Shown piece by piece: positions 12,879-29,937 of a DNA stretch of 64,000 nt. The stretch lies in the IMG/VR virus record IMGVR_UViG_3300032295_002421, positions 14,630-78,629 of that record. One strand, 5' to 3'. Made by a program: the position numbers and the translations under genes. Below the pieces are notes generated by a model, which worked only from the letters and a program-made list of their open reading frames with translations, was not told where the DNA came from and did no database searches. The DNA is from a virus. Lineage: Duplodnaviria; Caudoviricetes. The first letter of the stretch is position 1, and every line of letters begins with the position of its first letter.

Positions 12879-13038
12879 ATAACCTATTAATTTCCAATAC
12901 TTTATAACTTATTGATTTTCAATCACTTGCATAACTGATTGATTTCCAATCGACAATTTTTAAAAAAAGACTAAAAAGATTTTTTTATGTCAAAAATATG
13001 TCGTAATTTTACTATGTATCAAATCAATAATGAATATG
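12879..13038 (+). repeat. Early-promoter cassette copy 1 (3 IHF-box units, A/T tract, promoter core, RBS/start)
   Basis: Units at 12879, 12904, 12931; core TGTCGTAATTTTACTATGTATCAAATCAATAATG at 12999. Confidence 0.9.
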
Positions 13039-13374
13039 GACATCAAGATCTTCGTTTTTAACTACATTACTAAAGAGACAATCATTGACAGTACGATAAC
13101 TGTTCAAGGCGATTTTGCAACAGCCGAGGCTAACCACCAGGTATTTAGAGAAGTTCATCCGGACTGTCAAGTCAATTTTGTTATTGATAGTAAGAACTTT
13201 ATTTTTGCTCCACCTTTAAATCAAGAAAAGGACGAGATCGCTTATGAAGAAGGTCGTATGACTTGGAACGAGTATGTGTCTAAATGGCACGGAGGTTCAG
13301 CATTAGAAAGCGATAGCGATATGCCTAGCTATGAAGATATGGCGCATGCTGCATTTTATTCTCAAAATTTATAA
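13030..13374 (+). CDS. Early hypothetical protein
   Basis: Starts inside cassette 1 (MNM...). Confidence 0.7.
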   Translation: MNMDIKIFVFNYITKETIIDSTITVQGDFATAEANHQVFREVHPDCQVNFVIDSKNFIFAPPLNQEKDEIAYEEGRMTWNEYVSKWHGGSALESDSDMPSYEDMAHAAFYSQNL

Positions 13375-13385
13375 AATAATAGAAT

Positions 13386-13529
13386 ATGAAAATATTAAGC
13401 GTAAATGATTATTTTGTAGAGGTATTGTGGATAGATGATAATGAGATCGAATACATTCCACGTGAAGAGTTTGACAAGAAGTATGGAGCTCCAAAAGATC
13501 CTTCAATTCCAATTTTATTCATTAAATAA
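13386..13529 (+). CDS. Small hypothetical protein (47 aa)
   Basis: MKILSVNDYF...PILFIK*, read by hand; fills gap between ORFs. Confidence 0.55.
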   Translation: MKILSVNDYFVEVLWIDDNEIEYIPREEFDKKYGAPKDPSIPILFIK

Positions 13530-13611
13530 ATAGTTATGACTCTAACAGTTCCAATCGTTACTTATCCACATTTTCCAAAAGAAATTCAAACAATCCACTT
13601 AAATTAAGGTT

Positions 13612-13974
13612 ATGACTCAAAAAGAAATTAAAGCATTAGCATCAGAAATTATTGGCGACGGACAACTTCCTAATAAGTTCTTCGTAACAGTAAGTCCTTA
13701 TATTACAACTATTGATGAGTTTGGAGATCATAATTCAGAACTTATTGAAGGTTACACTGATGAGGATACTACAACAGAAGTCTTTGACACTTATGAAGAA
13801 GCCGAAGAATATTTCAATACAATAGATCTTGATCATCGTTATGGTACAGGACATGCCATGATTGAAGATAGATTGACTGGACAAATTACAGAAATATTTT
13901 TAGAGTCAGTAGTTGAAGTTAATTATCATTTGCGTGGACATGATATGTCAAAAACATTTGGTTATAAAAAATAA
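13612..13974 (+). CDS. Acidic hypothetical protein
   Basis: ORF track; GGTTATG start context. Confidence 0.7.
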   Translation: MTQKEIKALASEIIGDGQLPNKFFVTVSPYITTIDEFGDHNSELIEGYTDEDTTTEVFDTYEEAEEYFNTIDLDHRYGTGHAMIEDRLTGQITEIFLESVVEVNYHLRGHDMSKTFGYKK

Positions 13975-13978
13975 TATT

Positions 13979-14200
13979 ATGAATAAATTAAGAATACGGA
14001 AAACAATTACGCCTAAGAATTCTTTAGAGTATAATGAATGGCTAAAAGAATTTAATTTTGGAAGTGCTTATGATCTTACTAAAGAGAAAGCTAGGAAGCA
14101 CTCTTTAAATGAACACTACGACTTTACTAAACTAATTCCTCAGACTGAAGAATTTAGTTTTAAAAATATCCTAGAATTGGTTAAATTTAAGTTCCTATGA
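13979..14200 (+). CDS. Hypothetical protein
   Basis: Start reset to MNKLRIRK at 13979. Confidence 0.6.
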   Translation: MNKLRIRKTITPKNSLEYNEWLKEFNFGSAYDLTKEKARKHSLNEHYDFTKLIPQTEEFSFKNILELVKFKFL

Positions 14201-14520
14201 TAATTGTGCACTCTTTTATAGTTCCATTCTTTTGGATAGACGAGAAAGGTCCTTATCTAATAGATGATAATGGAAGAAGAGATTTGCCTCAAGGTACCAC
14301 AAGAGATCAGATCCTGTGGTTCAAGAAGCCTCATAGAGGTGGAAAGAACCCTGCATTTGAAAGGGATATTGAATGGGATGTGGAAGGTACAAAAGGTAAG
14401 AAGTATCTAGTGACACTCAAAGGAAAAACCTGGGAGTGCAACTGTCACTCTTTTAAATTTTCTGGAAATAAAAGAACATGCAAACATATAGAGGACTTAA
14501 AGGGTTCATATTTATCATAG
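14197..14520 (+). CDS. SWIM zinc-finger protein
   Basis: WECNCHSF...TCKHI (CxC..CxH). Confidence 0.8.
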   Translation: MIIVHSFIVPFFWIDEKGPYLIDDNGRRDLPQGTTRDQILWFKKPHRGGKNPAFERDIEWDVEGTKGKKYLVTLKGKTWECNCHSFKFSGNKRTCKHIEDLKGSYLS

Positions 14521-14538
14521 GACCTAAAACCTATCTAT

Positions 14539-15132
14539 ATGAACAAGAAGGAAAGAGAGTTCGTCAAATACGTAAAGTCTGAATGTAAAAAGTATGGGGT
14601 CAAGTGTGACTTGAGGAAAACTAGATACGTTAGATTATCAGGAAATATAAAGTGCTCAGGATATTTTGATGAAGATACTCCGGCTCTTGTTTGTTCAATG
14701 AATAGAAAGGATTGGATAGAGATCCTTGCACATGAATTTTCTCACCTCACGCAATGGATAGAGCAGATAGATATTTGGAAGAAGTGTATGACAAGTATGC
14801 CTCTTGTAGATGCTTGGTTAGAAGGTGAAGAGGTTCCTAATATAAAGAAACATTTGGCAGTATCTAGAGAGTTAGAATTGGATAATGAAAAAAGGTCTGT
14901 AAGAATTATTAAAAAGTTTGGTCTAGATGTAGACATAGATAGCTATATAAAAAAGGCTAATGCATATATCTACTTCTATAATAGATTATTGGCTACAAGA
15001 AAGTGGGCCACTCCAAACAATAGCCCATACAGTAACCAAAAGATCATAGAGAAGATGCCAAGGTATTTTAAAGCTGATTATTCAATAACACCTAAAAGAA
15101 TAGAAAAAGTATTCATACAAGAAAACTTATAG
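14539..15132 (+). CDS. Putative zinc metallopeptidase (HExxH)
   Basis: ILAHEFSHLTQW followed by ELELDNE. Confidence 0.6.
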   Translation: MNKKEREFVKYVKSECKKYGVKCDLRKTRYVRLSGNIKCSGYFDEDTPALVCSMNRKDWIEILAHEFSHLTQWIEQIDIWKKCMTSMPLVDAWLEGEEVPNIKKHLAVSRELELDNEKRSVRIIKKFGLDVDIDSYIKKANAYIYFYNRLLATRKWATPNNSPYSNQKIIEKMPRYFKADYSITPKRIEKVFIQENL

Positions 15133-15134
15133 TT

Positions 15135-15515
15135 ATGGACTCAACAATAAAGCCTACGAGAAAACACGTAAATCAAATCCTTGATTGGTGTATAAAGACT
15201 TATGGTAAATCTAAATTCAATAGACCAATTCCAGAAATAGAGTTTAAGAAACCAGACTACTATACAGAAGGATGTATAGCATATTACGATGAGATTGATG
15301 CTGTTATATTTGTAGACAAAGTTGCTAATGATAGTTTAAATGAGTTAGCGAATAGCATCATCCACGAATATATACACTACAAACAAAACATGAAACACTA
15401 TCAGATACTTGCAATGTATCTACCAGATCATAAAAATCCTATGGAAATTGAGGCATCAAAAATTGCTAAAAGAGATACAAAAAAGTGCTTAAAAGAACTA
15501 TTTGGCACTAAGTAG
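15135..15515 (+). CDS. Putative zinc metallopeptidase (HExxH, SprT-like)
   Basis: IIHEYIHYKQ...PMEIEA. Confidence 0.6.
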   Translation: MDSTIKPTRKHVNQILDWCIKTYGKSKFNRPIPEIEFKKPDYYTEGCIAYYDEIDAVIFVDKVANDSLNELANSIIHEYIHYKQNMKHYQILAMYLPDHKNPMEIEASKIAKRDTKKCLKELFGTK

Positions 15516-15559
15516 TTTAACCTTACTATTAATATTTATTATTATATTAATTTAATATA

Positions 15560-15850
15560 ATGACTATACTTCAAGTAACAGAATCAGAACACATAAAAGA
15601 GTATTTTTTACAATATGGGATTTTGGGTATACTTGCTTTTTTACTTGGCTATTTTGCATGGATGCAATATCAAAGACTTGTTAAAAAAAATGATATGCTT
15701 GAAGAAAAAGTAGATAGACTTCAAGAAGAAATGATGGGATTAATTGCAGAAGAAAGAGATAGACTAGCAGAACTTATTAAAGATAATACTGAAGCGTTGC
15801 GTGAATTACAGAAAACGATATTTAAGTACATGGTTAAAAATAATGAGTGA
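15560..15850 (+). CDS. Holin-like membrane protein (1 TM + coiled coil)
   Basis: QYGILGILAFLLGYFAW hydrophobic helix; late motif at 15532. Confidence 0.45.
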   Translation: MTILQVTESEHIKEYFLQYGILGILAFLLGYFAWMQYQRLVKKNDMLEEKVDRLQEEMMGLIAEERDRLAELIKDNTEALRELQKTIFKYMVKNNE

Positions 15851-16164
15851 TGGATTACAAGAAATATTCTTTAGGCAAAATGGGAGATAAATTAGTTAAA
15901 GCAATGGAAGCTAAAGAGCATTTCGATAAGAAAGAAATTGAAAATAATTATATAAGAAAAATACAAACACTAAAAGAGATCCTCACTCACGAATATAAAT
16001 TTGCTACTGAAAATAAAGGTAAGCATTCAAATTACGCAATTAAATTAGAAGTAGTTGAGAAGCATATAGACTACGTAAAAAAGGTTCAAAATAAAAAGTC
16101 ATTTGATCAATCAGATAAACAGATCATAGACCAACTAATCCTAAAGTATACCTCCCATAACTGA
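15847..16164 (+). CDS. Hypothetical protein
   Basis: 105-aa ORF coupled to upstream gene. Confidence 0.6.
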   Translation: MMDYKKYSLGKMGDKLVKAMEAKEHFDKKEIENNYIRKIQTLKEILTHEYKFATENKGKHSNYAIKLEVVEKHIDYVKKVQNKKSFDQSDKQIIDQLILKYTSHN

Positions 16165-16314
16165 TTGATTTCCAATCACTTATAACTTATTGATAATCAA
16201 TCACTTATAACTTATTGATTTTCAATCGAGAATTTTTAAAAAAAGTCAAAATAAATTTTTTTATCTCGATGGAATGTCTTAATTTTACTATGTATCAAAC
16301 AAATAAAAGTTATG
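16157..16314 (+). repeat. Early-promoter cassette copy 2
   Basis: Units at 16157, 16182, 16207; core TGTCTTAATTTTACTATGTATC at 16275. Confidence 0.9.
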
Positions 16315-17190
16315 AATAAGCAAGTTATCCTCTCAGCTCTAGAAGCACAGCTCAAGACAAAACAGTCAGAAATTGAAGTCTATGAAAATGACATAGTCAA
16401 GCCAGCGTACGAAGCACAGAATGCCAGTATCTTAGCTTGGTTCCAAGAAAATGTATCTAATTTAATTCAAAAAATATCAGCTACTAGAGACAGGATTGAG
16501 ATCATGAAATTCGAAGAGCATGCACGCTGGAATTCATGTACTATTTCTCTAATGACTGACTATAGAAGTGAGTCTAGATCTAAGTACGCTGAGTTTAGTT
16601 GGTATAGTTCTAGAGCTACGGCAAAAGACGGATTTGTTCTAGCCGATGTACAAATATTTGGAGCCGTAGCTGCTAAGTTTCAAGAGATAGAAAACTTATT
16701 CATATATGAATGGGGACCAGCATTTACTGAGATATATAATGAGCTCAATAAAATGGAAAGAGAGTGCTCAGACTTGAGTACTACTATTAGTAATACAAAG
16801 AGCGAAATCGCTAGTGAAGCAAAGAATCAATATAAAAAAGCTGGCTTCTTTTGTAAATTAAATACTAAAAAATATATCCATACAAATTGGGATACAAATG
16901 ATGTTACTTTGCAAGATATAGATCATCAAATAAAATTACAAATAGGTAGAAGTAACTATGACTATGTATATGCAAGTGCTTTTAAAGTGAAAGAAATAAA
17001 CAAATACAAATGCACATTACAAATCTCTAACTCACATGGAGTATTAGATAAAGAATTTACTGTAACAATTAAAAGATTTAATCAGTTTATCGATGATGTG
17101 TTTAATTGGCAAAATGGTGGATCTGAAAGTGATAGTAAATACACTATAGATAGGTTCAATAGGAGATATGCTAAACAAGAAAATGCATAA
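16312..17190 (+). CDS. Early hypothetical protein
   Basis: 292-aa ORF directly after cassette 2. Confidence 0.75.
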   Translation: MNKQVILSALEAQLKTKQSEIEVYENDIVKPAYEAQNASILAWFQENVSNLIQKISATRDRIEIMKFEEHARWNSCTISLMTDYRSESRSKYAEFSWYSSRATAKDGFVLADVQIFGAVAAKFQEIENLFIYEWGPAFTEIYNELNKMERECSDLSTTISNTKSEIASEAKNQYKKAGFFCKLNTKKYIHTNWDTNDVTLQDIDHQIKLQIGRSNYDYVYASAFKVKEINKYKCTLQISNSHGVLDKEFTVTIKRFNQFIDDVFNWQNGGSESDSKYTIDRFNRRYAKQENA

Positions 17191-17192
17191 TA

Positions 17193-17282
17193 ATGAAGTA
17201 CATTAAGTATTTAAAAGATGAGTCATTATTGGCACTAATAGGATTAATTCTAATATTCATTTATATCATATCAAAAAATTAA
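17193..17282 (+). CDS. Small membrane peptide (29 aa)
   Basis: MKYIKYLKDESLLALIGLILIFIYIISKN*, read by hand. Confidence 0.4.
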   Translation: MKYIKYLKDESLLALIGLILIFIYIISKN

Positions 17283-17287
17283 AGGTT

Positions 17288-17743
17288 ATGGGATTAGACA
17301 TGTACATGTATAAAAAACTTTATATATCTCAAGGTGATTTTTTTAAAGAAGAATATAGAGATCAGGTCTCTATTACTAAAGGTGGTAAAGATCATCCTAC
17401 AATTAAAAATAGTCGCGTTAGATATGTAATTGAAGAGATAGGATATTGGCGTAAAGCAAATGCTATTCATAAATGGTTCGTAGATAATATTCAAAAAGGA
17501 CACGATGATTGTGGAGAATATTTTGTATTTCCAAATCAACTTCAACAACTTAAAGATCTTTGCCTTCAAGTAATTGAAGACGGTAATAAAGCTCCTGAAT
17601 TACTTCCTACTAATAGTGGTTGTTTCTTTGGTAGTACTGAATATGATGAATATTATTTTGATGATCTACATGAAACAGTAAAAATAATAGACGAAGCTTT
17701 ATTAGATCCTGAAGGAGCTTATTATTATTCATCAAGTTGGTAA
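17288..17743 (+). CDS. Conserved phage hypothetical protein
   Basis: MGLDMY...YWRKANAIHKWF...DDCGEY...GCFFGSTEYDEYY, a recognisable phage family. Confidence 0.75.
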   Translation: MGLDMYMYKKLYISQGDFFKEEYRDQVSITKGGKDHPTIKNSRVRYVIEEIGYWRKANAIHKWFVDNIQKGHDDCGEYFVFPNQLQQLKDLCLQVIEDGNKAPELLPTNSGCFFGSTEYDEYYFDDLHETVKIIDEALLDPEGAYYYSSSW

Positions 17744-17753
17744 AAATAAAAAC

Positions 17754-18023
17754 ATGAAGACATTTAAAGACTTAGAATTTATAGAAATAAAAGATCTATT
17801 CTATAATGGAGTGCAGTGTAGAATTCAATTTGGCAACGGATACGGAGCCAGCATAGTTAGACACAACTTTAGTTATGGAGGAAAAGAAGGTCTCTATGAG
17901 CTTGCTGTATTAGATGAGAATGGAAAGCTACATTATGACAATCCAGTAGCTAATGGAGATGTTAGAGGGCATTTGACACCTGATGAAGTTACAGAACTAT
18001 TAAAACAAATTCAAGAGTTATGA
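17754..18023 (+). CDS. Conserved phage hypothetical protein
   Basis: NGYGASIVRHNFSYGGKEGLYELAVL. Confidence 0.75.
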   Translation: MKTFKDLEFIEIKDLFYNGVQCRIQFGNGYGASIVRHNFSYGGKEGLYELAVLDENGKLHYDNPVANGDVRGHLTPDEVTELLKQIQEL

Positions 18024-18223
18024 AAAAGTATTGTAAAGTATGTGGAACTGAGATCCACCCAAAACGTGTAGCATTAGGATATTCTACTTCTTGTGTAAAG
18101 CATTCGACTGCCGAAAGATATACAGGTATTGTGGCAGCAGGATCTAAAAATGACTTTGAAGTTCATGTCATTAAAGATAGTAAGGTTGCCAAAGAACTTG
18201 TTAAGATGTCAAATATTTATTAG
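18020..18223 (+). CDS. Small Zn-finger-like protein
   Basis: CKVC...SCVKH. Confidence 0.55.
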   Translation: MKKYCKVCGTEIHPKRVALGYSTSCVKHSTAERYTGIVAAGSKNDFEVHVIKDSKVAKELVKMSNIY

Positions 18224-18233
18224 AAAGAATCAA

Positions 18234-18512
18234 ATGAATTACGTAGACCCAGTTAAGTATAGCAAAGCAATCTTATCATTGATGGAAGATGAATCAATGC
18301 CACAAGAGGAAACCATTCCGGTTAAAGGTAATATGACTATGAAAGAAAGAGTATCTAACCTTTCTCCTGATGATAAAAAGAAACTTGAGGAATACATTGA
18401 TGCTATTAAAGAGATCAAGAAAGAGATCCACGAATTAATTAATAAAGATGCCATTGCAGAAGAAGGCGGTAATATGTCTTCAGGATTGTATATGAGTACA
18501 GAAGAGGAATAA
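18234..18512 (+). CDS. Acidic hypothetical protein (late motif upstream)
   Basis: Start reset to MNYVDP at 18234; ATATTTAT at 18213. Confidence 0.6.
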   Translation: MNYVDPVKYSKAILSLMEDESMPQEETIPVKGNMTMKERVSNLSPDDKKKLEEYIDAIKEIKKEIHELINKDAIAEEGGNMSSGLYMSTEEE

Positions 18513-18523
18513 AATAAAATAAA

Positions 18524-18871
18524 ATGGTTTTGTTAAATTTAGTTTACGGAGTTCTTTATGGTATAATAGGACAAGTCTTATCTTTTATTCAACTACAAGG
18601 CGGTATCAAATGGGGTTGGACTGAGAAATACAGTTGGGCTCTTATGTTACTTGGACTTCCTATTAGTTGGGCATTCATGAAAAGTGTCCACAATTTTATC
18701 TTAGCATTTCATGGAGAAACTTGGCCTTCAAGACTATTAGGTTTTGGAATTGGAGTTATAGTATTCATTGCACTTACTTGGTTTTTATTTAAAGAAGGTG
18801 TAACACTAAAGACTTCAATTTGTTTATTTCTTGCATTAGTTATAATTTTGATACAAATGTTGTGGAAATGA
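18524..18871 (+). CDS. Small multi-pass membrane protein
   Basis: About 4 hydrophobic segments; SMR/DMT-like size. Confidence 0.6.
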   Translation: MVLLNLVYGVLYGIIGQVLSFIQLQGGIKWGWTEKYSWALMLLGLPISWAFMKSVHNFILAFHGETWPSRLLGFGIGVIVFIALTWFLFKEGVTLKTSICLFLALVIILIQMLWK

Positions 18872-19605
18872 AAACTGTTGTATTAGGAGATACTCATGGA
18901 AGATCTAATTGGAAGCTTGCTATTCATCAAGAAAAGCCCGGTAGAGTTATATTCATTGGTGATTACTTTGACTCATTTGAGTTTAGTGGAGTAGAGCAGA
19001 TTAATAACTTTAAAGAGATTATAAAGTATAAAGAAAATAATCTACAAGTTGAAGTGGTAATGTTAATTGGCAATCATGATCATCATTACTTTCCAGAAGT
19101 AGGATATACAGGTACTAGTGGTTATCAAAATAAAATTGCTCCATCAATTACACAAGTGATAGATGAGAATAGACATCATTTACAAATGGCTTATGGTTTT
19201 GGTGAGTATCTATTTACTCATGCTGGTGTAAGTCCTGTATTTATGGATGAAACATTTGGAGAAAATGATTGGAGTATAGAAAACATTGTAGTAGATCTAA
19301 ATGAAATGTTTAAATATAAACCTAAAGCATTTGACTTTAATGGTTTTGAATATACAGGTAATAATACAACACAGACACCAATCTGGATTAGACCGAGTGC
19401 TTTGATGTCTGCAAATAAGAAACATCCTAAAGGATTAAAGAAAGACTATATTCAAATTGTAGGACATACCCAAATGCGTAAATTAGATTTAGAAGATAGT
19501 AATAAATTTACAGGAGGTAGATATTATTTCATAGATACTATGGATACAACAGGACAATATCTTATAATTGAAGATGGTAAACTAAGTGTTAATTCTGTAA
19601 AATGA
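18868..19605 (+). CDS. Calcineurin-like metallophosphoesterase
   Basis: GDTHG, FIGDYFD, GNHD, FTHAG, VGHT; start reset to 18868. Confidence 0.9.
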   Translation: MKTVVLGDTHGRSNWKLAIHQEKPGRVIFIGDYFDSFEFSGVEQINNFKEIIKYKENNLQVEVVMLIGNHDHHYFPEVGYTGTSGYQNKIAPSITQVIDENRHHLQMAYGFGEYLFTHAGVSPVFMDETFGENDWSIENIVVDLNEMFKYKPKAFDFNGFEYTGNNTTQTPIWIRPSALMSANKKHPKGLKKDYIQIVGHTQMRKLDLEDSNKFTGGRYYFIDTMDTTGQYLIIEDGKLSVNSVK

Positions 19606-19614
19606 TTATTAATT

Positions 19615-19788
19615 ATGACAGTAAAAGAAAGAGCCAATTTTTTGGTAGAAAGATATGGAGATAACTGTATTCAAGTTGTTAATAGTTTATTAGAAGACAA
19701 TACAGAAACAAATTATTTGTCTTATTGGAAAGATGTACTTAAAACATGTCAAGAAATTCTAACAAATAAAAAACAAGTTAATGCCTAA
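19615..19788 (+). CDS. Small hypothetical protein (57 aa), distant paralogue of 27131..27367
   Basis: MTVKERA...YWKDV resembles MTAKEKA...YWEKV. Confidence 0.5.
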   Translation: MTVKERANFLVERYGDNCIQVVNSLLEDNTETNYLSYWKDVLKTCQEILTNKKQVNA

Positions 19789-19945
19789 TGTAGTTGATCT
19801 AGTAGATCGTATAGAAGAAATGTTTACTGATATGCCTGATAAAAGAAAGAAGAAGGAATATCAAGAATGGAAAGTAACTATCAATAAGTTAATAGAAGAA
19901 GTAAATAAAATGTCAAAGATAAAAATGTATTCAACCATTAAATAA
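19781..19945 (+). CDS. Small hypothetical protein (54 aa)
   Basis: MPNVVDLVDRIEE...STIK*, read by hand. Confidence 0.5.
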   Translation: MPNVVDLVDRIEEMFTDMPDKRKKKEYQEWKVTINKLIEEVNKMSKIKMYSTIK

Positions 19946-19951
19946 AAAGTT

Positions 19952-20335
19952 ATGGCGTACAGTCGTTTCGGATCCAGCCGTTGGTACACTTATTGGTATG
20001 AAGATTATAGTTCAGGAATAAAGTTTCCTACTAAAAAAGAAAAGAGGAAACAAATGTTTATGATCCATGACTTTCCTACGTATATAATTACATACGGGGA
20101 ACTACAAGATAAAGGGATAGGTAGAATATGGGATGACATAAGATTATTCTATTGGACTGATACAGAAGAGTTTAAAGCAAAGAAACCTTCTGAAACTGAA
20201 ATGCGTGAACTAATGGATTATATTTTTCAATGGGAAAAAGATGTGAATAAATATTTTAAATTATTTAATTTTATAAAATATGAATGGTATTATCCATTAA
20301 GAATTAAAATAAAAAATTATGGAAAAAAATTATAA
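19952..20335 (+). CDS. Hypothetical protein
   Basis: ORF track; AAAAGTTATG context. Confidence 0.65.
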   Translation: MAYSRFGSSRWYTYWYEDYSSGIKFPTKKEKRKQMFMIHDFPTYIITYGELQDKGIGRIWDDIRLFYWTDTEEFKAKKPSETEMRELMDYIFQWEKDVNKYFKLFNFIKYEWYYPLRIKIKNYGKKL

Positions 20336-20549
20336 GCAACACAATTCTGGACACTATCTAGAATTAGCAGATAGACTGTGTGTAATCATGGGTAATATAG
20401 ATGAATATTGTTATGATCACCCTGCTTCTAATGATGAGATTAAAAAACTTATAGATGAAGCAATGAAGAATCTTTGGGATGCATATCAAATAACAGGAGT
20501 AAACATATGTGAATATTCCGGACTAAGAGGATTAGAAGGATACGAGTAA
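20319..20549 (+). CDS. Hypothetical protein
   Basis: ORF track. Confidence 0.6.
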   Translation: MEKNYKQHNSGHYLELADRLCVIMGNIDEYCYDHPASNDEIKKLIDEAMKNLWDAYQITGVNICEYSGLRGLEGYE

Positions 20550-20590
20550 GCGCGGCCGCGGGTAGGGCACTTTTCGAGAGGGCCTAAAAA
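20549..20590. other. GC-rich intergenic island
   Basis: GCGCGGCCGCGGGTAGGGCACTTTTCGAGAGGGCC in an otherwise very AT-rich genome. Confidence 0.6.
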
Positions 20591-20708
20591 ATACCATAAA
20601 TACAAATATGCCAGAAACTACACTACAAGAAGTCCTAACCATAATATTAATATGGGAAATAACAAGACTCATACTAAGAAAGCTATGGTATAAAATAATA
20701 AACAGACT

Positions 20709-21066: not shown

Positions 21067-21120
21067 AATTTCTCTGGTCCGTGAAATGTCATATATTTGA
21101 TATATATAAAAATTGTAAAA

Positions 21121-21593: not shown

Positions 21594-21594
21594 C

Positions 21595-21831: not shown

Positions 21832-21833
21832 CT

Positions 21834-22304: not shown

Positions 22305-22555
22305 ACTTTCTTTATTATGGATTTAATGTCACAATAGCAAGAGTTAGCGCCATGTGCTATAGCCATTAAAATCCACATTAAAGTCATTTCATTTAAACCT
22401 AAAAATGTTTTTACTTCAATCTCTTGTGAAATAGAATCTGGTGAACAGTGGATTATAGATGGAGTTGGTTCGTAAAAATAAAAAGCAAGAAGAAGAAAAG
22501 ATACAGATACCCAATACCTTAAAAAATAGTATATAAATTTATTTAGCATATACAA
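22301..22555 (-). CDS. Small membrane protein
   Basis: Two hydrophobic segments; only minus-strand ORF filling this gap. Confidence 0.5.
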   Translation of the reverse strand: MYMLNKFIYYFLRYWVSVSFLLLAFYFYEPTPSIIHCSPDSISQEIEVKTFLGLNEMTLMWILMAIAHGANSCYCDIKSIIKKV

Positions 22556-22566
22556 ATAAATATAAA

Positions 22567-23121
22567 ATGAAAGTAAATAGGGAAGATCTTAAGTGGTACA
22601 TAGACAATGTTAAGTACAACTATCCTAACTCAACACCTGAAGAGTTTGTTGATCACCTTGCTAATTACATTGAGATGAATCCAGGTTGTATTGATGTGAA
22701 TGGTAAAGCAAGACGCGGTAGATATTATTATTCAACCGTAGGTTATGGAGTATTCAGTTTGTTTGGTGAGAAATACAGAATGGGTAGGATTGAAATATTT
22801 GATAAAAAAACTGAATCGGGATATCAAGTAGATGAAGGAATCTATAGCCTACCTCATGAAGTTGCAAAACAATTTGAAGACTTTATTGAATCAATTGAAA
22901 CAGATCTACCAATTGAAATAAAAATAGGTTCACATGAATGGTGTGAAGAGGAATGTGCTAAGTCACTTGGCTTTACTGATAGTGATCAGATGAGAGAACC
23001 TGAAGCAGTTAAAGCTTATCAAAGAAAAAAGAATGATGAATATGCTAAGTCACAAGGATATAAAGATTGGGATGATCTAGTAGCTAATTCTAAATGGTCA
23101 AAGAAAAAGAATGAAAAATAA
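22567..23121 (+). CDS. Hypothetical protein
   Basis: 184-aa ORF. Confidence 0.7.
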   Translation: MKVNREDLKWYIDNVKYNYPNSTPEEFVDHLANYIEMNPGCIDVNGKARRGRYYYSTVGYGVFSLFGEKYRMGRIEIFDKKTESGYQVDEGIYSLPHEVAKQFEDFIESIETDLPIEIKIGSHEWCEEECAKSLGFTDSDQMREPEAVKAYQRKKNDEYAKSQGYKDWDDLVANSKWSKKKNEK

Positions 23122-23209
23122 AATAATAAAGTTTTTTAAAGACATATTCTTAGGCTTTAAAATAGCAGAAGAACTTAAGAAGAAAAGTCAATGGGGTAAA
23201 TTCTAAGTT

Positions 23210-23521
23210 ATGAAATTAGAAACGCTTACTAAAATTATAGGCACATTAAAGAATCAAAGTGAAGTAACTAATCAACTGTACAGACTTAATGTAGATTTAG
23301 TTGAGTTTGCAGATCCTTATGAATCAGTAATTACTATACTAATTAAAGAGATTTATGGAGAAGAAGGTTATGATTGGTTTAGTTGGTTTTGTTATGACTG
23401 TGATTTTGGTAGCAAATATAGTAAGAAAGATCCTGGTGCATGGGATAAAGATAACAATCCTATTTGCTACGACATAGAATCACTTTGGAATTGTTTAGAA
23501 ACTGAATATAAAATAAAATAA
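23210..23521 (+). CDS. Hypothetical protein
   Basis: DWFSWFCYDCDFG motif. Confidence 0.65.
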   Translation: MKLETLTKIIGTLKNQSEVTNQLYRLNVDLVEFADPYESVITILIKEIYGEEGYDWFSWFCYDCDFGSKYSKKDPGAWDKDNNPICYDIESLWNCLETEYKIK

Positions 23522-23522
23522 T

Positions 23523-23717
23523 ATGGCAACACTTATTGCAACAATCGCTCTTGTATTTCTATTTGCAGGCATTCAACATGCGGCTAATTGGATGGTTAGA
23601 AAAGTTTATAAAGATGTCTATGGACAAAGAGATGCCTCGTCTGTGATGATCGTGGTCATTCTGGCGGTGGTCCTGAGCGTCTTTTGTGTCCAAATGATCA
23701 TACTTTTGAACCAATAA
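23523..23717 (+). CDS. Small 2-TM membrane protein
   Basis: Two hydrophobic helices. Confidence 0.55.
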   Translation: MATLIATIALVFLFAGIQHAANWMVRKVYKDVYGQRDASSVMIVVILAVVLSVFCVQMIILLNQ

Positions 23718-23721
23718 TGGC

Positions 23722-23881
23722 ATAAGTTATTGATTTTCAATCACTTACATAACTAATTGATTATCAACAAGTTATAACTTATTGATTTTCAATCGACAAT
23801 TTTTGAAAAAGATCAAAAAAAATTTTTTTATATCAAAAATATGTCTTAATTTTACTATGTATCAAATCAATAATGAATATG
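23722..23881 (+). repeat. Early-promoter cassette copy 3
   Basis: Units at 23722, 23749, 23774; core at 23842. Confidence 0.9.
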
Positions 23882-24112
23882 CTTAGTAACTACAGAATGA
23901 ACCTCCCGCAATTGACAGCCGCTCTCAGAAGCAGATGCTTGAACAGGACTGCGGATTATTTTGAATCTTTTAAGAATGACGATACTGTCACTCTAGATGG
24001 TCTGTACATAGACAAATCATTTGTTAGACGTCATATCGGACCTGGCGACTTAATGCTAAACCTTGAATGCGAAGTTACTTCTTACATTTTTGGTGTCCAT
24101 ATCGAAGCCTAA
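23873..24112 (+). CDS. Early hypothetical protein
   Basis: Starts inside cassette 3 (MNM...). Confidence 0.6.
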   Translation: MNMLSNYRMNLPQLTAALRSRCLNRTADYFESFKNDDTVTLDGLYIDKSFVRRHIGPGDLMLNLECEVTSYIFGVHIEA

Positions 24113-24137
24113 TCTTTAATCAATCAAAATAATCAAT

Positions 24138-24341
24138 ATGAGCTTTAAGAAATATAACGAGAATTTAAGAATGGTATCAGTTGACGGAGTAGACTACGCA
24201 AAGTCGTACAGTACATTAGTAGCTAGAGTAGAAGACAAAAAGTTGATCGAACTTGGTCGTTGGTCTAAGACTACCACAAAACATGTGAACTACGTGGCTA
24301 AGCAGCTCGGTCTTGAATTGATAAGATTTAGTAACAATTAA
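24138..24341 (+). CDS. Conserved small phage protein
   Basis: SYSTLVA...WSKTTTKHVNY. Confidence 0.7.
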   Translation: MSFKKYNENLRMVSVDGVDYAKSYSTLVARVEDKKLIELGRWSKTTTKHVNYVAKQLGLELIRFSNN

Positions 24342-24352
24342 AATTTTATAAT

Positions 24353-24556
24353 ATGTGTAAGAATGAATTAGAAAAAATGGTCCGCATGAGCCAAGAAGAA
24401 TACATGCAACAGAATCCTAATTACGAACCTATGTTCCCTAAAGGATGGGATGATGATAGTAGGTGGCCAGAGTTTAAGTATGACTATGACTCTTTCAGAT
24501 CCACTCAAATTGCTATCGACCACCATTTAGAGGTTATGGCAGGTTGTTGGGACTAA
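24353..24556 (+). CDS. Hypothetical protein
   Basis: ORF track. Confidence 0.55.
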   Translation: MCKNELEKMVRMSQEEYMQQNPNYEPMFPKGWDDDSRWPEFKYDYDSFRSTQIAIDHHLEVMAGCWD

Positions 24557-24582
24557 TATTAATCAAAAAAACAATAAAAGTT

Positions 24583-24867
24583 ATGCAAGACATTAATTAT
24601 CCAGTTGGGTTCACCATTTTCAAGTTAGACGAAGATAAAGAAGAGTATACCATTACAGGTAATATAGCCAAGGCATATAAATTTAGAGATTTTGAAAGTG
24701 CTTATGATTTGGAAGAATATATAAATAAGCACATAGATTGTTCAGGTATTGCTTTTGACTCCGAATACTGCCAGTTTTTTGCTTATGCTAAAACTGTAGA
24801 TCGAGCAAAGAAATTTGTCGAGGATATAACTACTTGGGTAGTTAAAGTAAAAGAATTAGTAGATTAA
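24583..24867 (+). CDS. Hypothetical protein
   Basis: Start reset to MQDINY at 24583. Confidence 0.6.
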   Translation: MQDINYPVGFTIFKLDEDKEEYTITGNIAKAYKFRDFESAYDLEEYINKHIDCSGIAFDSEYCQFFAYAKTVDRAKKFVEDITTWVVKVKELVD

Positions 24868-24888
24868 AAAATTAAAACAATAAAGGTT

Positions 24889-25083
24889 ATGAATTACAAA
24901 ATGAAATTGAGTGACTTAAAAGAAATGGACGGACTTTACTACATAGCAGATATTGTAGACGTAGATGGTAGTCCTTGGGTTAGTAAAGAGTTCGCACTAC
25001 AAACTTTAGATCTAGTGAACGCTGAAATGAATCAGCCGGTATTTGAAGACTTCGGAGATGATCTATTTGAAGATGAGTTCTAA
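24889..25083 (+). CDS. Small acidic hypothetical protein
   Basis: ORF track. Confidence 0.55.
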   Translation: MNYKMKLSDLKEMDGLYYIADIVDVDGSPWVSKEFALQTLDLVNAEMNQPVFEDFGDDLFEDEF

Positions 25084-25109
25084 AAAAACTTATCTACTCT
25101 AAAGATAGA

Positions 25110-25145
25110 TTTTTATACAACAAAAAAATGTCTTAATTTACATTT
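25110..25145 (+). promoter_or_regulatory. Early-type promoter core lacking the IHF-box array
   Basis: TGTCTTAATTTAC at 25129, one T shorter than the cassette core. Confidence 0.5.
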
Positions 25146-25170
25146 ATATTAAAAAACAAAAAAAGCAGTT

Positions 25171-25416
25171 ATGCAAAATTCAAATCGCCCGAGCTCTTAC
25201 ACTAAATTGAGCTACATTCAGAAAGTTAGTCGTGTAAACAGAAAGCTCCGTCTTGGAGACGTAACTAGAGTTGCTGAGACAACCGGTTTTTCTACCACTC
25301 ATGTGGCAGACGTACTAACAGGTAAGTACTTCAACGATCGTATCGTTAATGAAGCTTACGACATGACACGTGGACGTAAGTCTAATGTGTACAAGCTTTC
25401 TAGCTTGGAGGCTTAA
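25171..25416 (+). CDS. Small HTH DNA-binding protein
   Basis: GDVTRVAETTGFSTTHVADVLTG matches the HTH pattern; basic. Confidence 0.6.
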   Translation: MQNSNRPSSYTKLSYIQKVSRVNRKLRLGDVTRVAETTGFSTTHVADVLTGKYFNDRIVNEAYDMTRGRKSNVYKLSSLEA

Positions 25417-25442
25417 TAACCTCACTCATTATTGATTATTTC

Positions 25443-25472
25443 GGCCTGGATCTCTATCCGGGCCTCTTTTTT
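25443..25472 (+). terminator. Rho-independent terminator
   Basis: GGCCTGGAT-ctct-ATCCGGGCC 9-bp stem followed by T-run. Confidence 0.85.
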
Positions 25473-25630
25473 ATAACTGGTTGATTATCAATACTTTATA
25501 ACTGATTGATTTTCAACCACTTATAACTGATTGATTTTCAATCGAGAATTTTCAAAAAAAGACTAAAAAGATTTTTTTATTTGACTGGAATGTCTTAATT
25601 TTACTATGTAACAAATCAATAATGAATATG
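25473..25630 (+). repeat. Early-promoter cassette copy 4
   Basis: Units at 25473, 25498, 25523; core at 25591. Confidence 0.9.
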
Positions 25631-26038
25631 AACAAGATTATCAACACCCTCGGACTCGGAACCTGCAACTTTATCAGAGAACAAAAAGGATCTTACAGGA
25701 TCGTCTACAAATGCCAAGCCGGGTTCATGAGTATTGCGGAAGCAAAATATAACGATGACATGGCTAATAATTTCGGACCTGCTCAACTGTTGTCTAGTTG
25801 GAAAAAGGGTTCACTTCAAACTATCCAATTCATGGCAGAAGGCGGACAGCACTGGCTTACTGTATTCGCTAGAAAAGGTAAGAAGGTTGTCGTGATCGAT
25901 GAGGAGATACTTAAAGATCTTACTGTCGGTACTATCAATTCTTATTGGATTGACACGAATCTGTATTCTCAAAAACAGTATGCGTATGTCAATGCTAAGA
26001 ATTGGGCATGTAAAGCATTCGTAATGAATGCCGCCTAA
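25622..26038 (+). CDS. Early hypothetical protein
   Basis: Starts inside cassette 4 (MNM...). Confidence 0.7.
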   Translation: MNMNKIINTLGLGTCNFIREQKGSYRIVYKCQAGFMSIAEAKYNDDMANNFGPAQLLSSWKKGSLQTIQFMAEGGQHWLTVFARKGKKVVVIDEEILKDLTVGTINSYWIDTNLYSQKQYAYVNAKNWACKAFVMNAA

Positions 26039-26076
26039 TTTCCAACTAATTAATTAACCAACAAAATTATCAATAT

Positions 26077-26292
26077 ATGTTTAGAGAAGGAATTTACAGA
26101 CGTTCAGATCTTATTGTACTTGAAACAATCGAACAGGCTTGGGATGGTGACGAGCTAGTCATAAACTCAGGAGACGAGAAAGTATGGTTGACTCATCGTG
26201 AGAATCGTGCTTACAATGGAGACTATACACTTGAGACTTTATGTCCTATCAGTGGAAAGTGGGAGCAAGAATCATTTTCGTTCAAACAATAA
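26077..26292 (+). CDS. Hypothetical protein
   Basis: ORF track. Confidence 0.55.
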   Translation: MFREGIYRRSDLIVLETIEQAWDGDELVINSGDEKVWLTHRENRAYNGDYTLETLCPISGKWEQESFSFKQ

Positions 26293-26301
26293 AATTGTAA
26301 T

Positions 26302-26526
26302 ATGAAAGTCAAATACACGCCAGGAACACCTGAAGGATTGGTAGGTAAAACCCATACAGTAGAAATAATAGGCCTGAAGATCTCTAAGATCAGAGGAGTG
26401 CTTAATAAGCCACTGATCCAACAGGTGAGAATTAAATATAAAGATGGTAAGACTGAATGGATTGATGGAATGAAATTATATAGCGATACACAGCCAAGTA
26501 AATTTTTAGAACATTATCAATATTAA
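26302..26526 (+). CDS. Hypothetical protein
   Basis: ORF track. Confidence 0.55.
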   Translation: MKVKYTPGTPEGLVGKTHTVEIIGLKISKIRGVLNKPLIQQVRIKYKDGKTEWIDGMKLYSDTQPSKFLEHYQY

Positions 26527-26537
26527 AATATAAAGTT

Positions 26538-26744
26538 ATGGCAACATTAATTAAAAAAGCTGAAAAAGCCGTAAGAGAATTTAAGGTAGGAGATCTTATT
26601 TGTTGGAGTACTTATTTCCATGACGGAAGATCTTATGAGACAACGTACTACAGTGGTACAGTAACTAAAGTCAACCGAGTCAATCTGATTGCAGAAGACA
26701 AAGAAGGAAATACTTGGAAAGTAGAAAAGGAGGAAGTAATATGA
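26538..26744 (+). CDS. Small SH3/KOW-like hypothetical protein
   Basis: FKVGDLI...GTVTKVNRVN. Confidence 0.55.
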   Translation: MATLIKKAEKAVREFKVGDLICWSTYFHDGRSYETTYYSGTVTKVNRVNLIAEDKEGNTWKVEKEEVI

Positions 26745-27121
26745 AAATAGAAGTATCAACTGGAGAGATCCTAGACAAGTTCTCTATCTTAATCATTAAG
26801 AGATCTAATATTATGGATGATGCCAAGCTAGACAACATCCAGAAGGAGATAGATGAATTACTTCCTATGTTCATTAGTATTACTTGCAAAGATAAAAAAG
26901 TCTATGACAAATATATTGATCTTGCAATAGTTAACAAAGAACTTTGGAGTATAGAAGATGATATCCGAGAATGTGAGAGACAAAAAGACTTTGGAGATAA
27001 GTTTGTCCAATTGGCCAGATTTGTGTATATTAGGAATGACGAGAGAGCCAAGATCAAGAAGGAGATAAACCTATTGACTAATTCAGATATAGTGGAAGAG
27101 AAGTCTTATGAATCCTATTAA
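26741..27121 (+). CDS. DUF6165-like protein
   Basis: IEVSTGEILDKFSIL.IK...LWSIEDDIRECE...F..LAR.VY..ND.RA.IK..IN...S...EEKSY; start reset to 26741. Confidence 0.7.
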   Translation: MKIEVSTGEILDKFSILIIKRSNIMDDAKLDNIQKEIDELLPMFISITCKDKKVYDKYIDLAIVNKELWSIEDDIRECERQKDFGDKFVQLARFVYIRNDERAKIKKEINLLTNSDIVEEKSYESY

Positions 27122-27130
27122 ATAAAAGTT

Positions 27131-27367
27131 ATGACAGCAAAAGAAAAAGCAACCAAATTAATTTCAATGTCTGAGCTAATCATATTGGCAGAGACGGGGC
27201 ATAAGCTAAACGTAAAAGAACGTAAAGATATTGCTAAGCGTCATGCAATTAATTGTTGCGATGAAGTATTAGGAGAAACATCTAATAAGCATTTTATAAT
27301 AGGAAGAAATGGTGCAAGCGGTGTAGAATATTGGGAAAAAGTAAAACAAGAATTAGAAAATTTATAA
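27131..27367 (+). CDS. Conserved small phage protein
   Basis: MTAKEKA...CDEVL...YWEKVKQEL. Confidence 0.65.
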   Translation: MTAKEKATKLISMSELIILAETGHKLNVKERKDIAKRHAINCCDEVLGETSNKHFIIGRNGASGVEYWEKVKQELENL

Positions 27368-27368
27368 T

Positions 27369-27527
27369 ATGGAAAATTTAGACAAAGCAAAGACAGCATA
27401 CAATACTCTATTAAAGAGTGGAATGTTCTATGAGTTCTATCCTCAATTGACAGGTAACTGGGATGAGGATAAGGACTTTTGGTTCGAGGAATATATGGAA
27501 CAAATGGAAAGAATGAAAAACAGATAG
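27369..27527 (+). CDS. Small hypothetical protein (52 aa)
   Basis: LLKSGMFYEFYPQLTGNWDEDK, read by hand. Confidence 0.55.
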   Translation: MENLDKAKTAYNTLLKSGMFYEFYPQLTGNWDEDKDFWFEEYMEQMERMKNR

Positions 27528-27529
27528 GG

Positions 27530-27916
27530 ATGGATAAAGAACAACAAAAACAAATTCTAATAGATATTATGAATGAAGATCAGAAAGATGGATTGTATGA
27601 AATACGCCCAGGACTCTTAACGTATGATGAAGGAAAGTGGACTATGTATACTGTTTGTCATAATGGATTATGGTCTGAAGGTATTCCACTTCATCCGAAT
27701 GAACATAGAATTTGGATGCACAAATATCAAATGGGAGAAGTTCCTACTCAAGGTAAGAAGATAGACTATCAAGTTGAATATGGTACTGGAGTTGTTTATG
27801 CTATTACCGATCTTAAGAAGCCTAACACTTCAACTATAGGATCCAAGTTAGATCTGATCCTAGAAGAGATTGACAAGATCAAATGGATGCTAAGAGATTT
27901 AGATAGTAGAGTCTAA
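27530..27916 (+). CDS. Hypothetical protein
   Basis: Start reset to MDKEQQKQ at 27530. Confidence 0.6.
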   Translation: MDKEQQKQILIDIMNEDQKDGLYEIRPGLLTYDEGKWTMYTVCHNGLWSEGIPLHPNEHRIWMHKYQMGEVPTQGKKIDYQVEYGTGVVYAITDLKKPNTSTIGSKLDLILEEIDKIKWMLRDLDSRV

Positions 27917-27940
27917 AGATATTTATATAAAAAGATCAGG

Positions 27941-28972
27941 ATGAAATTAAGACAACTACTCGAAGACCTTACTCTAGAGTTAAATATGCCTAAGCCAGAA
28001 GATGCCTACAAGTTTGATAAGATAGCATCTAAGAATTTAGGATACGGAGATTATTACAAGTACGCCTATACGAATGTTAAGGGAGATCCTATGGAAGTAA
28101 CTGTACTATCTACCAAGAAACCAAAGGATCCTGGAATTACACTCTATGTGGCATTTGGTGCAGACGTTACTGCTCAAGGTACTAAGACTGATTTTATTCC
28201 TGATCCTGGTAATGAAGACCCGGATGAAGAAGATAAGTACGATCAAAAGACAGGAGCTGGAGATGTATTGAAAGTTCTGGCTACCGTGGTCCAAGCTGTA
28301 AAGAATACTGTTAACAAGGTTGGAGGTATGGATAAGATATACGCAATGGCATGGTCACCAACAGATCCTAAAAGAGCAAATGTATACGACCACTACGTAC
28401 AAACCCTGTTCCCAACCTTTAAGAAGGATCTACAAATGTCTAGGCATTCTTTTAAGTACTATATCAACCAAGACTTCAAAGGTAAGGAAGTAAATGAGAT
28501 TGGATTGGACAGTGAAAAGATGAAGCCATATAGATTTACTACAGTAGAAGATGGAGAAGATCGTAGAGTATATTCTTTTAAAACCGATAGCGGTCTTGAT
28601 TATATGGTTGAATTGGAAGAAGAAGTAGATGATGATCTTGGTATGGTATTGTATATAAACTTTGGAGTGTTTGATAAAGATGATGTTGGAGCAGGATCAA
28701 ACCAAAATGTGGTAACAAATAAGGGAGAACAATATAGAGTAATGAATACCATTGCTGCCATAGTAAAAGAAGACTTAGCCATTAATTCATATATCAAATA
28801 CATAACATTTAATCCTGCTAAAAGAAAACTTCCTAATCCTATAAGTGGAAAAGAAAGAGATATAGATTCTAACTCAAGAGCGAAGCTGTACATGAAATAT
28901 ATTATAGGCAGACTTCCTAATGCTAAAGAGATAGATGATCCTAAATACCCAATCCTCATAAAGATTAAATAG
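27941..28972 (+). CDS. Probable virion-internal protein with two copies of a repeated domain
   Basis: MKLRQLLE N-terminus; late motif at 27919; domains separated by VNE. Confidence 0.7.
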   Translation: MKLRQLLEDLTLELNMPKPEDAYKFDKIASKNLGYGDYYKYAYTNVKGDPMEVTVLSTKKPKDPGITLYVAFGADVTAQGTKTDFIPDPGNEDPDEEDKYDQKTGAGDVLKVLATVVQAVKNTVNKVGGMDKIYAMAWSPTDPKRANVYDHYVQTLFPTFKKDLQMSRHSFKYYINQDFKGKEVNEIGLDSEKMKPYRFTTVEDGEDRRVYSFKTDSGLDYMVELEEEVDDDLGMVLYINFGVFDKDDVGAGSNQNVVTNKGEQYRVMNTIAAIVKEDLAINSYIKYITFNPAKRKLPNPISGKERDIDSNSRAKLYMKYIIGRLPNAKEIDDPKYPILIKIK

Positions 28973-28973
28973 A

Positions 28974-29462
28974 ATGAAACTATCCAAGATACTAAAGGAA
29001 GTAATGTCAGAAATAGGAGATGCTTCTAAAGAACCATATGGACCTATTGATACAATAACAGATGATGAAGGAGATAGACAATATGGATTTAAAACAGAAT
29101 CAGGAACCATATACGAGGTAAAGGTAGAAACTTTCTATAGAGGAGAAGGAAAACCTGTAATAGCAGCAGTATCATTTGGAATAATAGGAGAGGATGGAGA
29201 TATATCTTATGATGCTCAAACAGGAGAGAATGATATATACAGAATAATGGCAACCATAGTAGCCGTAGTAAAGAAAGATCTTAAATCAAATCATGCAGAT
29301 ATAATAGAGTTCTCCCCGTCTAAAAGAGCAGGAGATAAAGACAAAGATCCAATGTCAAACGTAAGAACCCAACTTTACACAAGATACATTAAAGGACAAT
29401 TCCCTAATGCTGAAGTAACTAGAACTCTTCATGGAGATATAAGAGTTGACTTAAAAAAATAA
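28974..29462 (+). CDS. Probable virion-internal protein, third copy of same domain
   Basis: MKLSKILKEVMSE; aligns with both halves of 27941..28972. Confidence 0.7.
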   Translation: MKLSKILKEVMSEIGDASKEPYGPIDTITDDEGDRQYGFKTESGTIYEVKVETFYRGEGKPVIAAVSFGIIGEDGDISYDAQTGENDIYRIMATIVAVVKKDLKSNHADIIEFSPSKRAGDKDKDPMSNVRTQLYTRYIKGQFPNAEVTRTLHGDIRVDLKK

Positions 29463-29766
29463 ACCGACTGGCCCAAGAAATAAACATACATAATAATCCA
29501 GTAATAGATAAAGATATAATACCAGAGGATAAGAATACAGATAAGGATATAAAGAAAACAACTCCTACACCTATACCTGTATAAAGAAACAATATAAAGG
29601 ATATAGATAAAAGATCCCAATCCCTAATTACCTAGTGTAGTACTAGAAAGATCTAACGGATATAAAAAATTAATATTGTTAGAAAGTGTTAGTTTGTGTC
29701 AATTTGTGTATAAAAGAATAAGAGAAAGAATAACCTGGATCCGTAGCCATATCACGCCCGCGCCGC

Positions 29767-29937
29767 CTAAGTGATTGATACCCAATAAGTTAGAAAGGAT
29801 ATTTACGTATATAAGAGATTGATTACCAACGACTTATAACTGATTGATTGCTAATAAAAACTTTTCAAAATAGTTGCCTAAATATTTTTTTATGTCACTG
29901 GATTGTCTTACTTTTACTATGTATCAAATCAATAATG
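29767..29937 (+). repeat. Early-promoter cassette copy 5 (more diverged)
   Basis: Boxes at 29768, 29812, 29837; core TGTCTTACTTTTACTATGTATCAAATCAATAATG at 29904. Confidence 0.8.

Follow-up and report, generated by a model that had tools for sequence, protein, structure and literature searches.

Repeated promoter cassettes carrying triple palindromes at a fixed distance from a host-type core in a phage of a probable Bacteroidota host

We analyzed a stretch of 64,000 nucleotides from the caudovirus record IMGVR_UViG_3300032295_002421 in IMG/VR (positions 14,630 to 78,629 of the record; here called the window and numbered from its first letter). Between 12.9 and 30 kb, the window contains five repeated control modules of about 150 bp, all on the + strand, in which three 25-bp palindromes, here called boxes, are placed at a fixed distance upstream of a promoter core. 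Each of these cassettes is interpreted as a self-contained transcription-unit boundary in an ORFan-rich region of a myovirus, which would combine a host-sigma early promoter, an array of sites for a dimeric protein and a joint for the shuffling of gene modules. We give this reading as a whole an even chance of being correct. The feature is a variant of the composite promoter cassette, a known kind of element, with new features. An initial annotation of the window had described five early-promoter cassettes built from boxes with the consensus of the host protein IHF. The five repeated cassettes, their positions and numbers, and the upstream sites at a fixed distance from the promoter were all confirmed in our analysis, whereas the identification with IHF was not supported.

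Cassette 1 (12880..13032, + strand) starts with boxes at 12880-12904, 12905-12929 and 12932-12956, followed by an A/T spacer, a T7 run in the -33 region (12980-12986), the -7 box TAATTTTA (13004-13011), a leader and the ATG at 13030. The same order is seen in cassette 2 (16158..16314, + strand), with boxes at 16158-16182, 16183-16207 and 16208-16232, the T7 run at 16256-16262, the -7 box at 16280-16287 and the ATG at 16312. Cassette 3 (23723..23875, + strand) has its boxes at 23723-23747, 23750-23774 and 23775-23799, the T7 run at 23823-23829, the -7 box at 23847-23854 and the ATG at 23873. For cassette 4 (25474..25624, + strand), the corresponding positions are 25474-25498, 25499-25523 and 25524-25548 for the boxes, 25572-25578 for the T7 run, 25596-25603 for the -7 box and 25622 for the ATG. 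Cassette 5 (29768..29937, + strand) is the most diverged, with boxes at 29768-29792, 29812-29836 and 29837-29861, the T7 run at 29885-29891, the -7 box TACTTTTA at 29909-29916 and the ATG at 29935. The box-to-box spacing is 25 bp in seven cases, 27 bp in two and 44 bp in one, the last in cassette 5. The arrays begin at the stop codon of the upstream gene or within 30 bp of it, and the first box of cassette 2 contains the stop codon of the upstream open reading frame (16162-16164).

The five cassettes belong to one repeat family, as judged from pairwise identities of 63-88% over 112-164 nt obtained with a repeat finder. Their multiple alignment has a mean column identity of approximately 75% over about 180 columns, and the homology, which begins at the first box, continues up to the start codons of five small genes that are unrelated to one another. 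No box was found outside the five cassettes in the 64,000-nt window, and all 15 boxes are thus tied to promoters. The core also occurs without boxes. The repeat finder identified a promoter-like partial copy, consisting of the core only, at 25102..25153 (+ strand), upstream of a small gene termed P0001. A second core-only promoter without boxes, at 54918..54955 (+ strand), carries the canonical -7 box TATATTTG (at 54948) and precedes a primase-like gene at 54960.

In all five copies the core consists of the T7 run, 17 nucleotides of spacer, TAATTTTA (TACTTTTA in copy 5) and then CTATGTA. Written as a promoter, it reads TTTT-N20-TAnnTTTA, with the -33 element inside the T7 run and the N20 spacer exact, and cassettes of other lineages have TTTG-N20-TAnnTTTACTATGTAA (TTTG-N20-TAnnTTTA). 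The consensus of the Bacteroidota primary sigma factor, sigma-ABfr, is TTTG at -33 and TAnnTTTG at -7 (PMC7366714). The -7 box agrees with this consensus at 7 of 8 positions in each of the five copies, the final G being replaced by A. A relaxed version of the promoter pattern had 36 matches in the window, as compared to 20.4 +/- 4.6 expected. The leader between the core and the ATG is conserved, A-rich and without a Shine-Dalgarno sequence. Leaders of this type are expected for Bacteroidota. The core is thus read as a probable strong host-type promoter of the Bacteroidota primary-sigma kind, its activity and timing being inferred, and the cassette promoters are probably read by the host RNA polymerase. 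In three related contigs (L019, L032 and L094), a different palindrome, TCTTTGAAGAATCTTCAA, takes the place of the three boxes, some 110-150 bp before the core, with the core and leader unchanged. Thus, the upstream element appears to be exchangeable.

The distance from the boxes to the core is invariant in the window. The spacing of 67 bp from the start of the proximal box to TGTC(T/G)TA(A/C)TTTTACTATGTA, described in the initial annotation, was observed in five of five copies, with TTTTACTATGTA located at 13007, 16283, 23850, 25599 and 29912. Measured between the start of ATTGA and the -7 box, the interval amounts to 66 bp in all five cassettes. A search for the motif and its spacing in related genomes, which had been suggested as a check, identified about 40 unique cassettes of the same family that keep a distance of 65-66 bp, despite many substitutions and the indel-prone A7 and T7 runs. 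Among the relatives is a 136 kb contig (G2) that is syntenic with the window at approximately 72-75% nucleotide identity and also carries five cassettes. A more distant relative with a complete genome of 181 kb (G1) has two cassettes with two boxes each; their spacer cannot be aligned with that of the window, yet the distance, counted by hand, is 66 bp in both. Distances of 56-57, 68, 73, 75, 77 and 83 bp were obtained in other lineages. A Rayleigh test for a period of 10-10.5 bp gave p values of about 0.01-0.03 in a small sample of 11 lineages chosen by hand, which is suggestive of a helical-face constraint on the distance between box and promoter.

The unit of the array is a 25-bp dyad, TAAC-N2-ATTGA-N3-TCAAT-N2-GTTA, in which 11 of the 14 arm positions of the consensus are complementary. 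The period of 25 bp arises because adjacent units abut and share TATA. The initial annotation had proposed a host protein of the IHF/HU family as the ligand of the boxes; this protein would activate the early promoter by bending the DNA or would itself be titrated by the arrays. The matches on which this proposal was based are real: 14 of the 15 left halves correspond to YAANNNNTTGATW on the + strand, the exception being the box at 12880 with TTAAT, and three perfect matches on the - strand are located in the cassettes at 16195, 23762 and 25486. They arise from TCAA and TTA, invariant in the arms of the box, which fall on specified positions of the IHF consensus WATCAANNNNTTR. The window contains 25 matches to the IHF pattern, as compared to 12.9 +/- 4.4 expected, with the entire excess inside the cassettes. 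However, the cassettes are a single repeat present five times, and the agreement of the 14 left halves is therefore one event rather than 14 independent ones. In favor of the proposal, Bacteroides possesses a host factor of the IHF/HU family, BHFa (PMC6606824), and abutting sites with a period of 25 bp would suit a protein that wraps DNA. But the consensus is that of the E. coli IHF, with no known validity in Bacteroidota, and the boxes are dyad-symmetric, unlike the asymmetric site of a heterodimer. Furthermore, the conserved C of TAAC, G of GTTA and T of TCAAT are placed outside the consensus, no gene of the HU/IHF family was found in the two related phage genomes G1 and G2, and boxes in host genomes behave as hairpins, as described below. 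The agreement with the IHF consensus is best seen as a by-product of a symmetric dyad in a phage whose host is probably a member of the Bacteroidota, and binding by an IHF/HU-family protein is in our view very unlikely.

The early promoter of phage Mu is activated by IHF, and IHF sites also occur inside the BIME/RIP repeats of E. coli. With these sites, the boxes have in common the match to WATCAANNNNTTR, as well as, for Mu, a position ahead of an early promoter and, for BIME/RIP, an association with palindromic repeats. The known sites are single, asymmetric and proteobacterial, whereas the boxes are symmetric and triplicate in a Bacteroidota setting, and their binding is putative. The upstream sites probably bind a protein.

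The box is widespread among phages. In scans of IMG/VR, the core and the boxes co-occurred in many contigs, and arrays of two boxes were found in more than 100 stretches, on contigs of very different size and gene content. A low-stringency search of GenBank phages identified single boxes only, in the Prevotella Lak megaphages, crAssphage and others. In crAssphage, the single box (BK010471.1, approximately 95975-96009; L378 1057-1091) lies between a RepL-like gene and gp87 and adjoins two direct repeats of GCGAAATCTATTCCATGTATGGTATAAAT, in a region that may be an origin or an early control region. Another arrangement was observed in IMG/VR contig 3300013126_002073 (L194), where two boxes are directly followed by two DnaA-box-like TGTGGATAA sequences and then by a TAnnTTTA promoter.

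Exact single boxes were also found in bacterial genomes, with at least 120 matches; Bacteroidota and allied phyla accounted for about 90% of those listed. For a control palindrome of matched composition there were 16 matches in all taxa, by which the possibility that the host boxes are terminator palindromes arising by chance was rejected. The box is not a phylum-wide universal site either: allowing for at most one mismatch, it was present in only 8 of 201 genomes in a random sample of Bacteroidota. The number of copies per genome ranges overall from 0 to more than 30, with 2-34 copies in five chosen genomes and many in one metagenome-assembled genome (MAG) of the Microscillaceae. The host boxes are intergenic, and many have a T-run; 17 of the 121 listed are located 5-14 nt 3' of a tRNA or tmRNA gene. 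Strong covariation was observed at the N2 and flanking positions of the host boxes (z of about 6-8 relative to column shuffles), which suggests that the boxes in hosts behave as hairpins, often as terminators. Arrays of two boxes were essentially lacking in bacterial genomes, with four unrelated matches. Neither the window region nor the host boxes had a match in Rfam, and the exact box strings were not found in a text search of a collection of papers.

Two further roles in the host were considered and rejected. As an upstream element of rRNA promoters, the box should precede the 16S genes, but it did not do so in three genomes; and as an element of other host promoters, it shows no preferred distance to TAnnTTTG. 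In Chryseobacterium sp. R2A-55 (L380-L382), a repeat present in five copies, at five contig ends, includes a box placed 55 bp before the -7 motif TATATTTG, and attempts to identify this element as an rRNA promoter were not successful. In MAGs of Microscillaceae and Cytophagales (L259, L298, L341, L359 and L365), a common motif resembling TTCACCACTTTTCAAGAAAA is located about 20 nt past the box, as if motif and box were part of a larger repeated element.

The behavior of the host boxes raises the question of whether the phage boxes function as DNA or as RNA. As RNA, they would form three tandem A/U-rich hairpins that serve as a terminator or insulator at the end of the upstream unit, with no dedicated DNA-binding protein, similar to the promoter-early stem-loop (PeSL) cassettes of T4-like phages (Arbiol 2010, PMC2839356; Comeau 2014, PMC4122927), whose stem-loops are effective terminators (PMC2839356). 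The covarying, tRNA-associated host boxes are consistent with such a role, as is the start of the arrays close to upstream stop codons. In addition, the proximal box of G1 forms a good hairpin, CCCATTGA-TTC-TCAATGGG, followed by T8. In the phages, however, the conserved letters of the box are kept and there is no covariation at the N2 and flanking positions, neither in the window family nor among 35 unique exact-armed boxes from diverse phages. Fixed mismatches such as C.C are present in the boxes of the window, a T-run is missing from boxes 1 and 2, and the predicted RNA folds of the cassettes are weak and differ from copy to copy (z of -0.2 to -6.4). The only intrinsic terminator near a cassette that a scan identified was a canonical G+C-rich hairpin with a 9-bp stem and a T-run (25443..25472, + strand), directly before the boxes of cassette 4, and none of the boxes was recovered; other operon ends lack boxes, and the convergent junction at 34.2 kb has a G+C-rich terminator without them. 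The missing covariation, fixed mismatches, inconsistent folds and terminators without boxes, combined with the constant distance between boxes and core, make an RNA hairpin less likely than a double-stranded site bound by a dimeric protein. We consider a function of the boxes as RNA to be possible but somewhat improbable.

A candidate for the binding protein is encoded in the window itself. P0001 (25171..25416, + strand) is a protein of 81 amino acids with a conserved Cro/LacI-headpiece-like helix-turn-helix, and its gene is located directly before cassette 4. The best matches among solved structures are to the Cro-like YdaS (E 0.007 and 0.017), and the predicted model is all-helical, with a pLDDT of 82 and weak fold matches that are mostly to helix-turn-helix domains. 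The searches yielded no Pfam family and no significant fold match, and only a faint match to a helix-turn-helix family in PHROG. P0001 has 235 metagenomic homologues, with 71-98% identity for the 120 listed, and is far more conserved than the products of the neighboring genes. It was found in the window family, in G1 and G2 and in two further lineages with arrays. P0001, expressed from its box-less promoter, might bind the boxes as a dimer and, once the first minutes of infection have passed, turn the five cassettes off or on. Opposing this, no P0001-like gene was found at E < 0.001 in three of the five complete genomes that carry arrays, and no homologue was found in GenBank phages, while boxes occur also in crAssphage, Lak phages and bacteria. 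Moreover, sites at -60 to -135 would be unusual for a simple repressor. We therefore regard control by P0001 as unlikely. In comparison with P0001, a host factor is no less likely as the binder, because early promoters must work before any phage proteins exist and because hosts carry the box.

In the favored reading, the cassette with its three abutting dyads, about 40 bp of A/T tracts, host-sigma promoter, CTATGTA, A-rich leader and start codon would function as follows. Unmodified host RNA polymerase would start at the core, for which reason the downstream units would be early. The boxes, centered at about -72, -97 and -122 to -124 if transcription starts a few bases after the -7 box, would be double-stranded sites for a dimeric, sequence-specific protein, supplied by the host or by the phage in the form of the Cro-like P0001. 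The bound protein would tune the promoter, most likely by boosting it and alternatively by shutting it off; we infer both the binding and the sign of the regulation. Since it is repeated, the cassette would also serve as a recombination joint at which gene modules are shuffled, like the PeSL in T4-like phages.

The mosaic junctions in related genomes are located at the cassettes. The related contigs L002 and L007 have a common flank upstream of the cassette and different genes downstream, and L002 and cassette 3 of the window have the same downstream gene and different upstream flanks. In G2, the gene that starts at 13030 in the window has a different cassette in front of it. This coincidence could also be accounted for if the boxes are a selfish or recombinogenic palindrome, resembling the repetitive extragenic palindromes (REP), that is common to Bacteroidota and phages and whose sole role in the phage is module exchange. 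The intergenic location of the host copies and their variable number, with many in a single Microscillaceae MAG, would agree with this explanation. Against it, the boxes keep a constant distance to the promoter, and probably also their phase, across spacers that cannot be aligned, and the strict link between box and promoter in the window points to a role in transcription. We judge a mainly REP-like role of the boxes to be highly improbable.

Several observations weigh against the favored reading. The -7 box ends with A rather than G and the -33 element in the window is TTTT rather than TTTG. The spacings of 68, 73 and 83 bp in other lineages depart from that of the window, and inside one family the invariant spacing could be the result of gene conversion between the copies and not of selection. 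The low frequency of the box in the sample of 201 genomes means that no universal host factor is implied, and a P0001-like gene was detected in only two of the five complete array-bearing genomes. Finally, a terminator role at the RNA level is possible, given the covarying host hairpins with T-runs after tRNA genes and the hairpin with T8 in G1.

The layout of the cassette resembles that of the PeSL more than that of an IHF array. The initial annotation had noted no known description of such multi-box arrays in lytic phages, thereby overlooking the PeSL cassettes (PMC2839356, PMC4122927). In these, a stem-loop is followed by an A/T-rich region, a strong early promoter for the host sigma factor and a ribosome site (PMC2839356). 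The PeSLs are repeated in hyperplastic regions and mediate modular shuffling (PMC2839356, PMC4122927), and recombination between PeSLs produces minicircles. Likewise, the cassettes described here are repeated modules of about 100-150 bp in a region of small, poorly conserved, ORFan-rich genes, with palindromes or stem-loops, an A/T-rich region, a host-sigma promoter and a translation start in the same order. In both systems the homology reaches the start codon, and the cassettes mark the limits of the segments that are inserted, deleted or replaced between relatives. The differences are that the single short G+C stem-loop of the PeSL is replaced by three abutting 25-bp dyads, that this palindrome is common to unrelated phages and host genomes, and that hairpin covariation is absent from the phage boxes. 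In addition, the promoter belongs to the Bacteroidota -33/-7 type, a Shine-Dalgarno sequence is missing from the leader, and the phage is not T4-like.

Two other systems with arrays of sites upstream of strong or early promoters are similar in part. The rrnB P1 promoter of E. coli has an UP element and three Fis sites, at -71, -102 and -143. The cassettes likewise have three far-upstream dyad sites, at about -70, -100 and -125, an A/T-rich element between the sites and the core, and a putatively strong promoter. In contrast, no box was found at the host rRNA promoters in the three genomes checked, and the binder is only a candidate; to our knowledge, Bacteroidota lack Fis. In phage phi29, the proteins p4 and p6 exert nucleoprotein control of the early promoters, the binding of p6 being largely independent of sequence. 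Here the similarity lies in the arrays of phage sites adjoining early promoters, with a period of about 24 bp, and in a small phage protein that switches early promoters, a role that is hypothetical for P0001. There is no homology between the two systems, and they differ in the largely sequence-independent binding of p6.

In a wider interpretation, the dyad would be the site of a Bacteroidota factor, possibly of the HU/IHF family. In hosts, the site would be found mostly within terminator hairpins that follow tRNA genes, and it would have been recruited by many unrelated Bacteroidota phages, including crAss-like and Lak phages. In the lineage analyzed here, it would be arranged in phased arrays of three, driving immediate-early transcription and marking the joints of module exchange. 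This proposal is tentative, and we are inclined to doubt it.

The host of the phage is most likely a member of the Bacteroidota. The G+C content of the window is about 30%, and the closest cultured relatives, as judged from the baseplate wedge protein (46% identity), are Flavobacterium phages of the genus Immutovirus. No box was found in the cultured relative Flavobacterium phage immuto, and one or two weak boxes were found in Mel-JY01. A nucleotide search of GenBank phages with the cassettes and 20 kb around them identified no relative. The cassettes are located in a region of about 60 small genes on the + strand (12.9-34 kb), which are mostly unassignable and for the most part without a Pfam match. 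This region is flanked on one side by a gene cluster for sugar or cyclitol modification (1-12849, + strand) and on the other by tail and baseplate genes (34-54 kb, - strand), beyond which are replication genes (55-64 kb). The modification cluster encodes three class-24 methyltransferases, two glycosyltransferases, a GDP-mannose-dehydratase-like epimerase and further SDR proteins and epimerases, along with an HpcH-type aldolase, a 3-dehydroquinate-synthase-like cyclase and a thiamine-diphosphate enzyme related to acetolactate synthase. The unit downstream of cassette 5 contains a gene for a DUF932 protein (30280-31074, + strand). In the tail region, a long imperfect repeat with a period of 3-9 bp (GTTGTTGTAGT...) is located at 37609-38213 (- strand), inside a gene for a protein of 432 amino acids (37437-38735), and would encode a low-complexity stretch rich in Thr and Ser.

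The start of gene expression is almost unstudied in phages of the Bacteroidota, a phylum that is dominant in gut, freshwater and marine communities. The upstream element together with the extended promoter motif TAnnTTTACTATGTAA would make it possible to annotate early units in many uncultured phage genomes, and the box would provide a bait with which a transcription factor may be found. The palindrome, being common to phages and to tRNA terminators of the hosts, offers a testable link between the two. Mobile, gene-shuffling promoter cassettes would thereby be extended beyond the T4-like phages.

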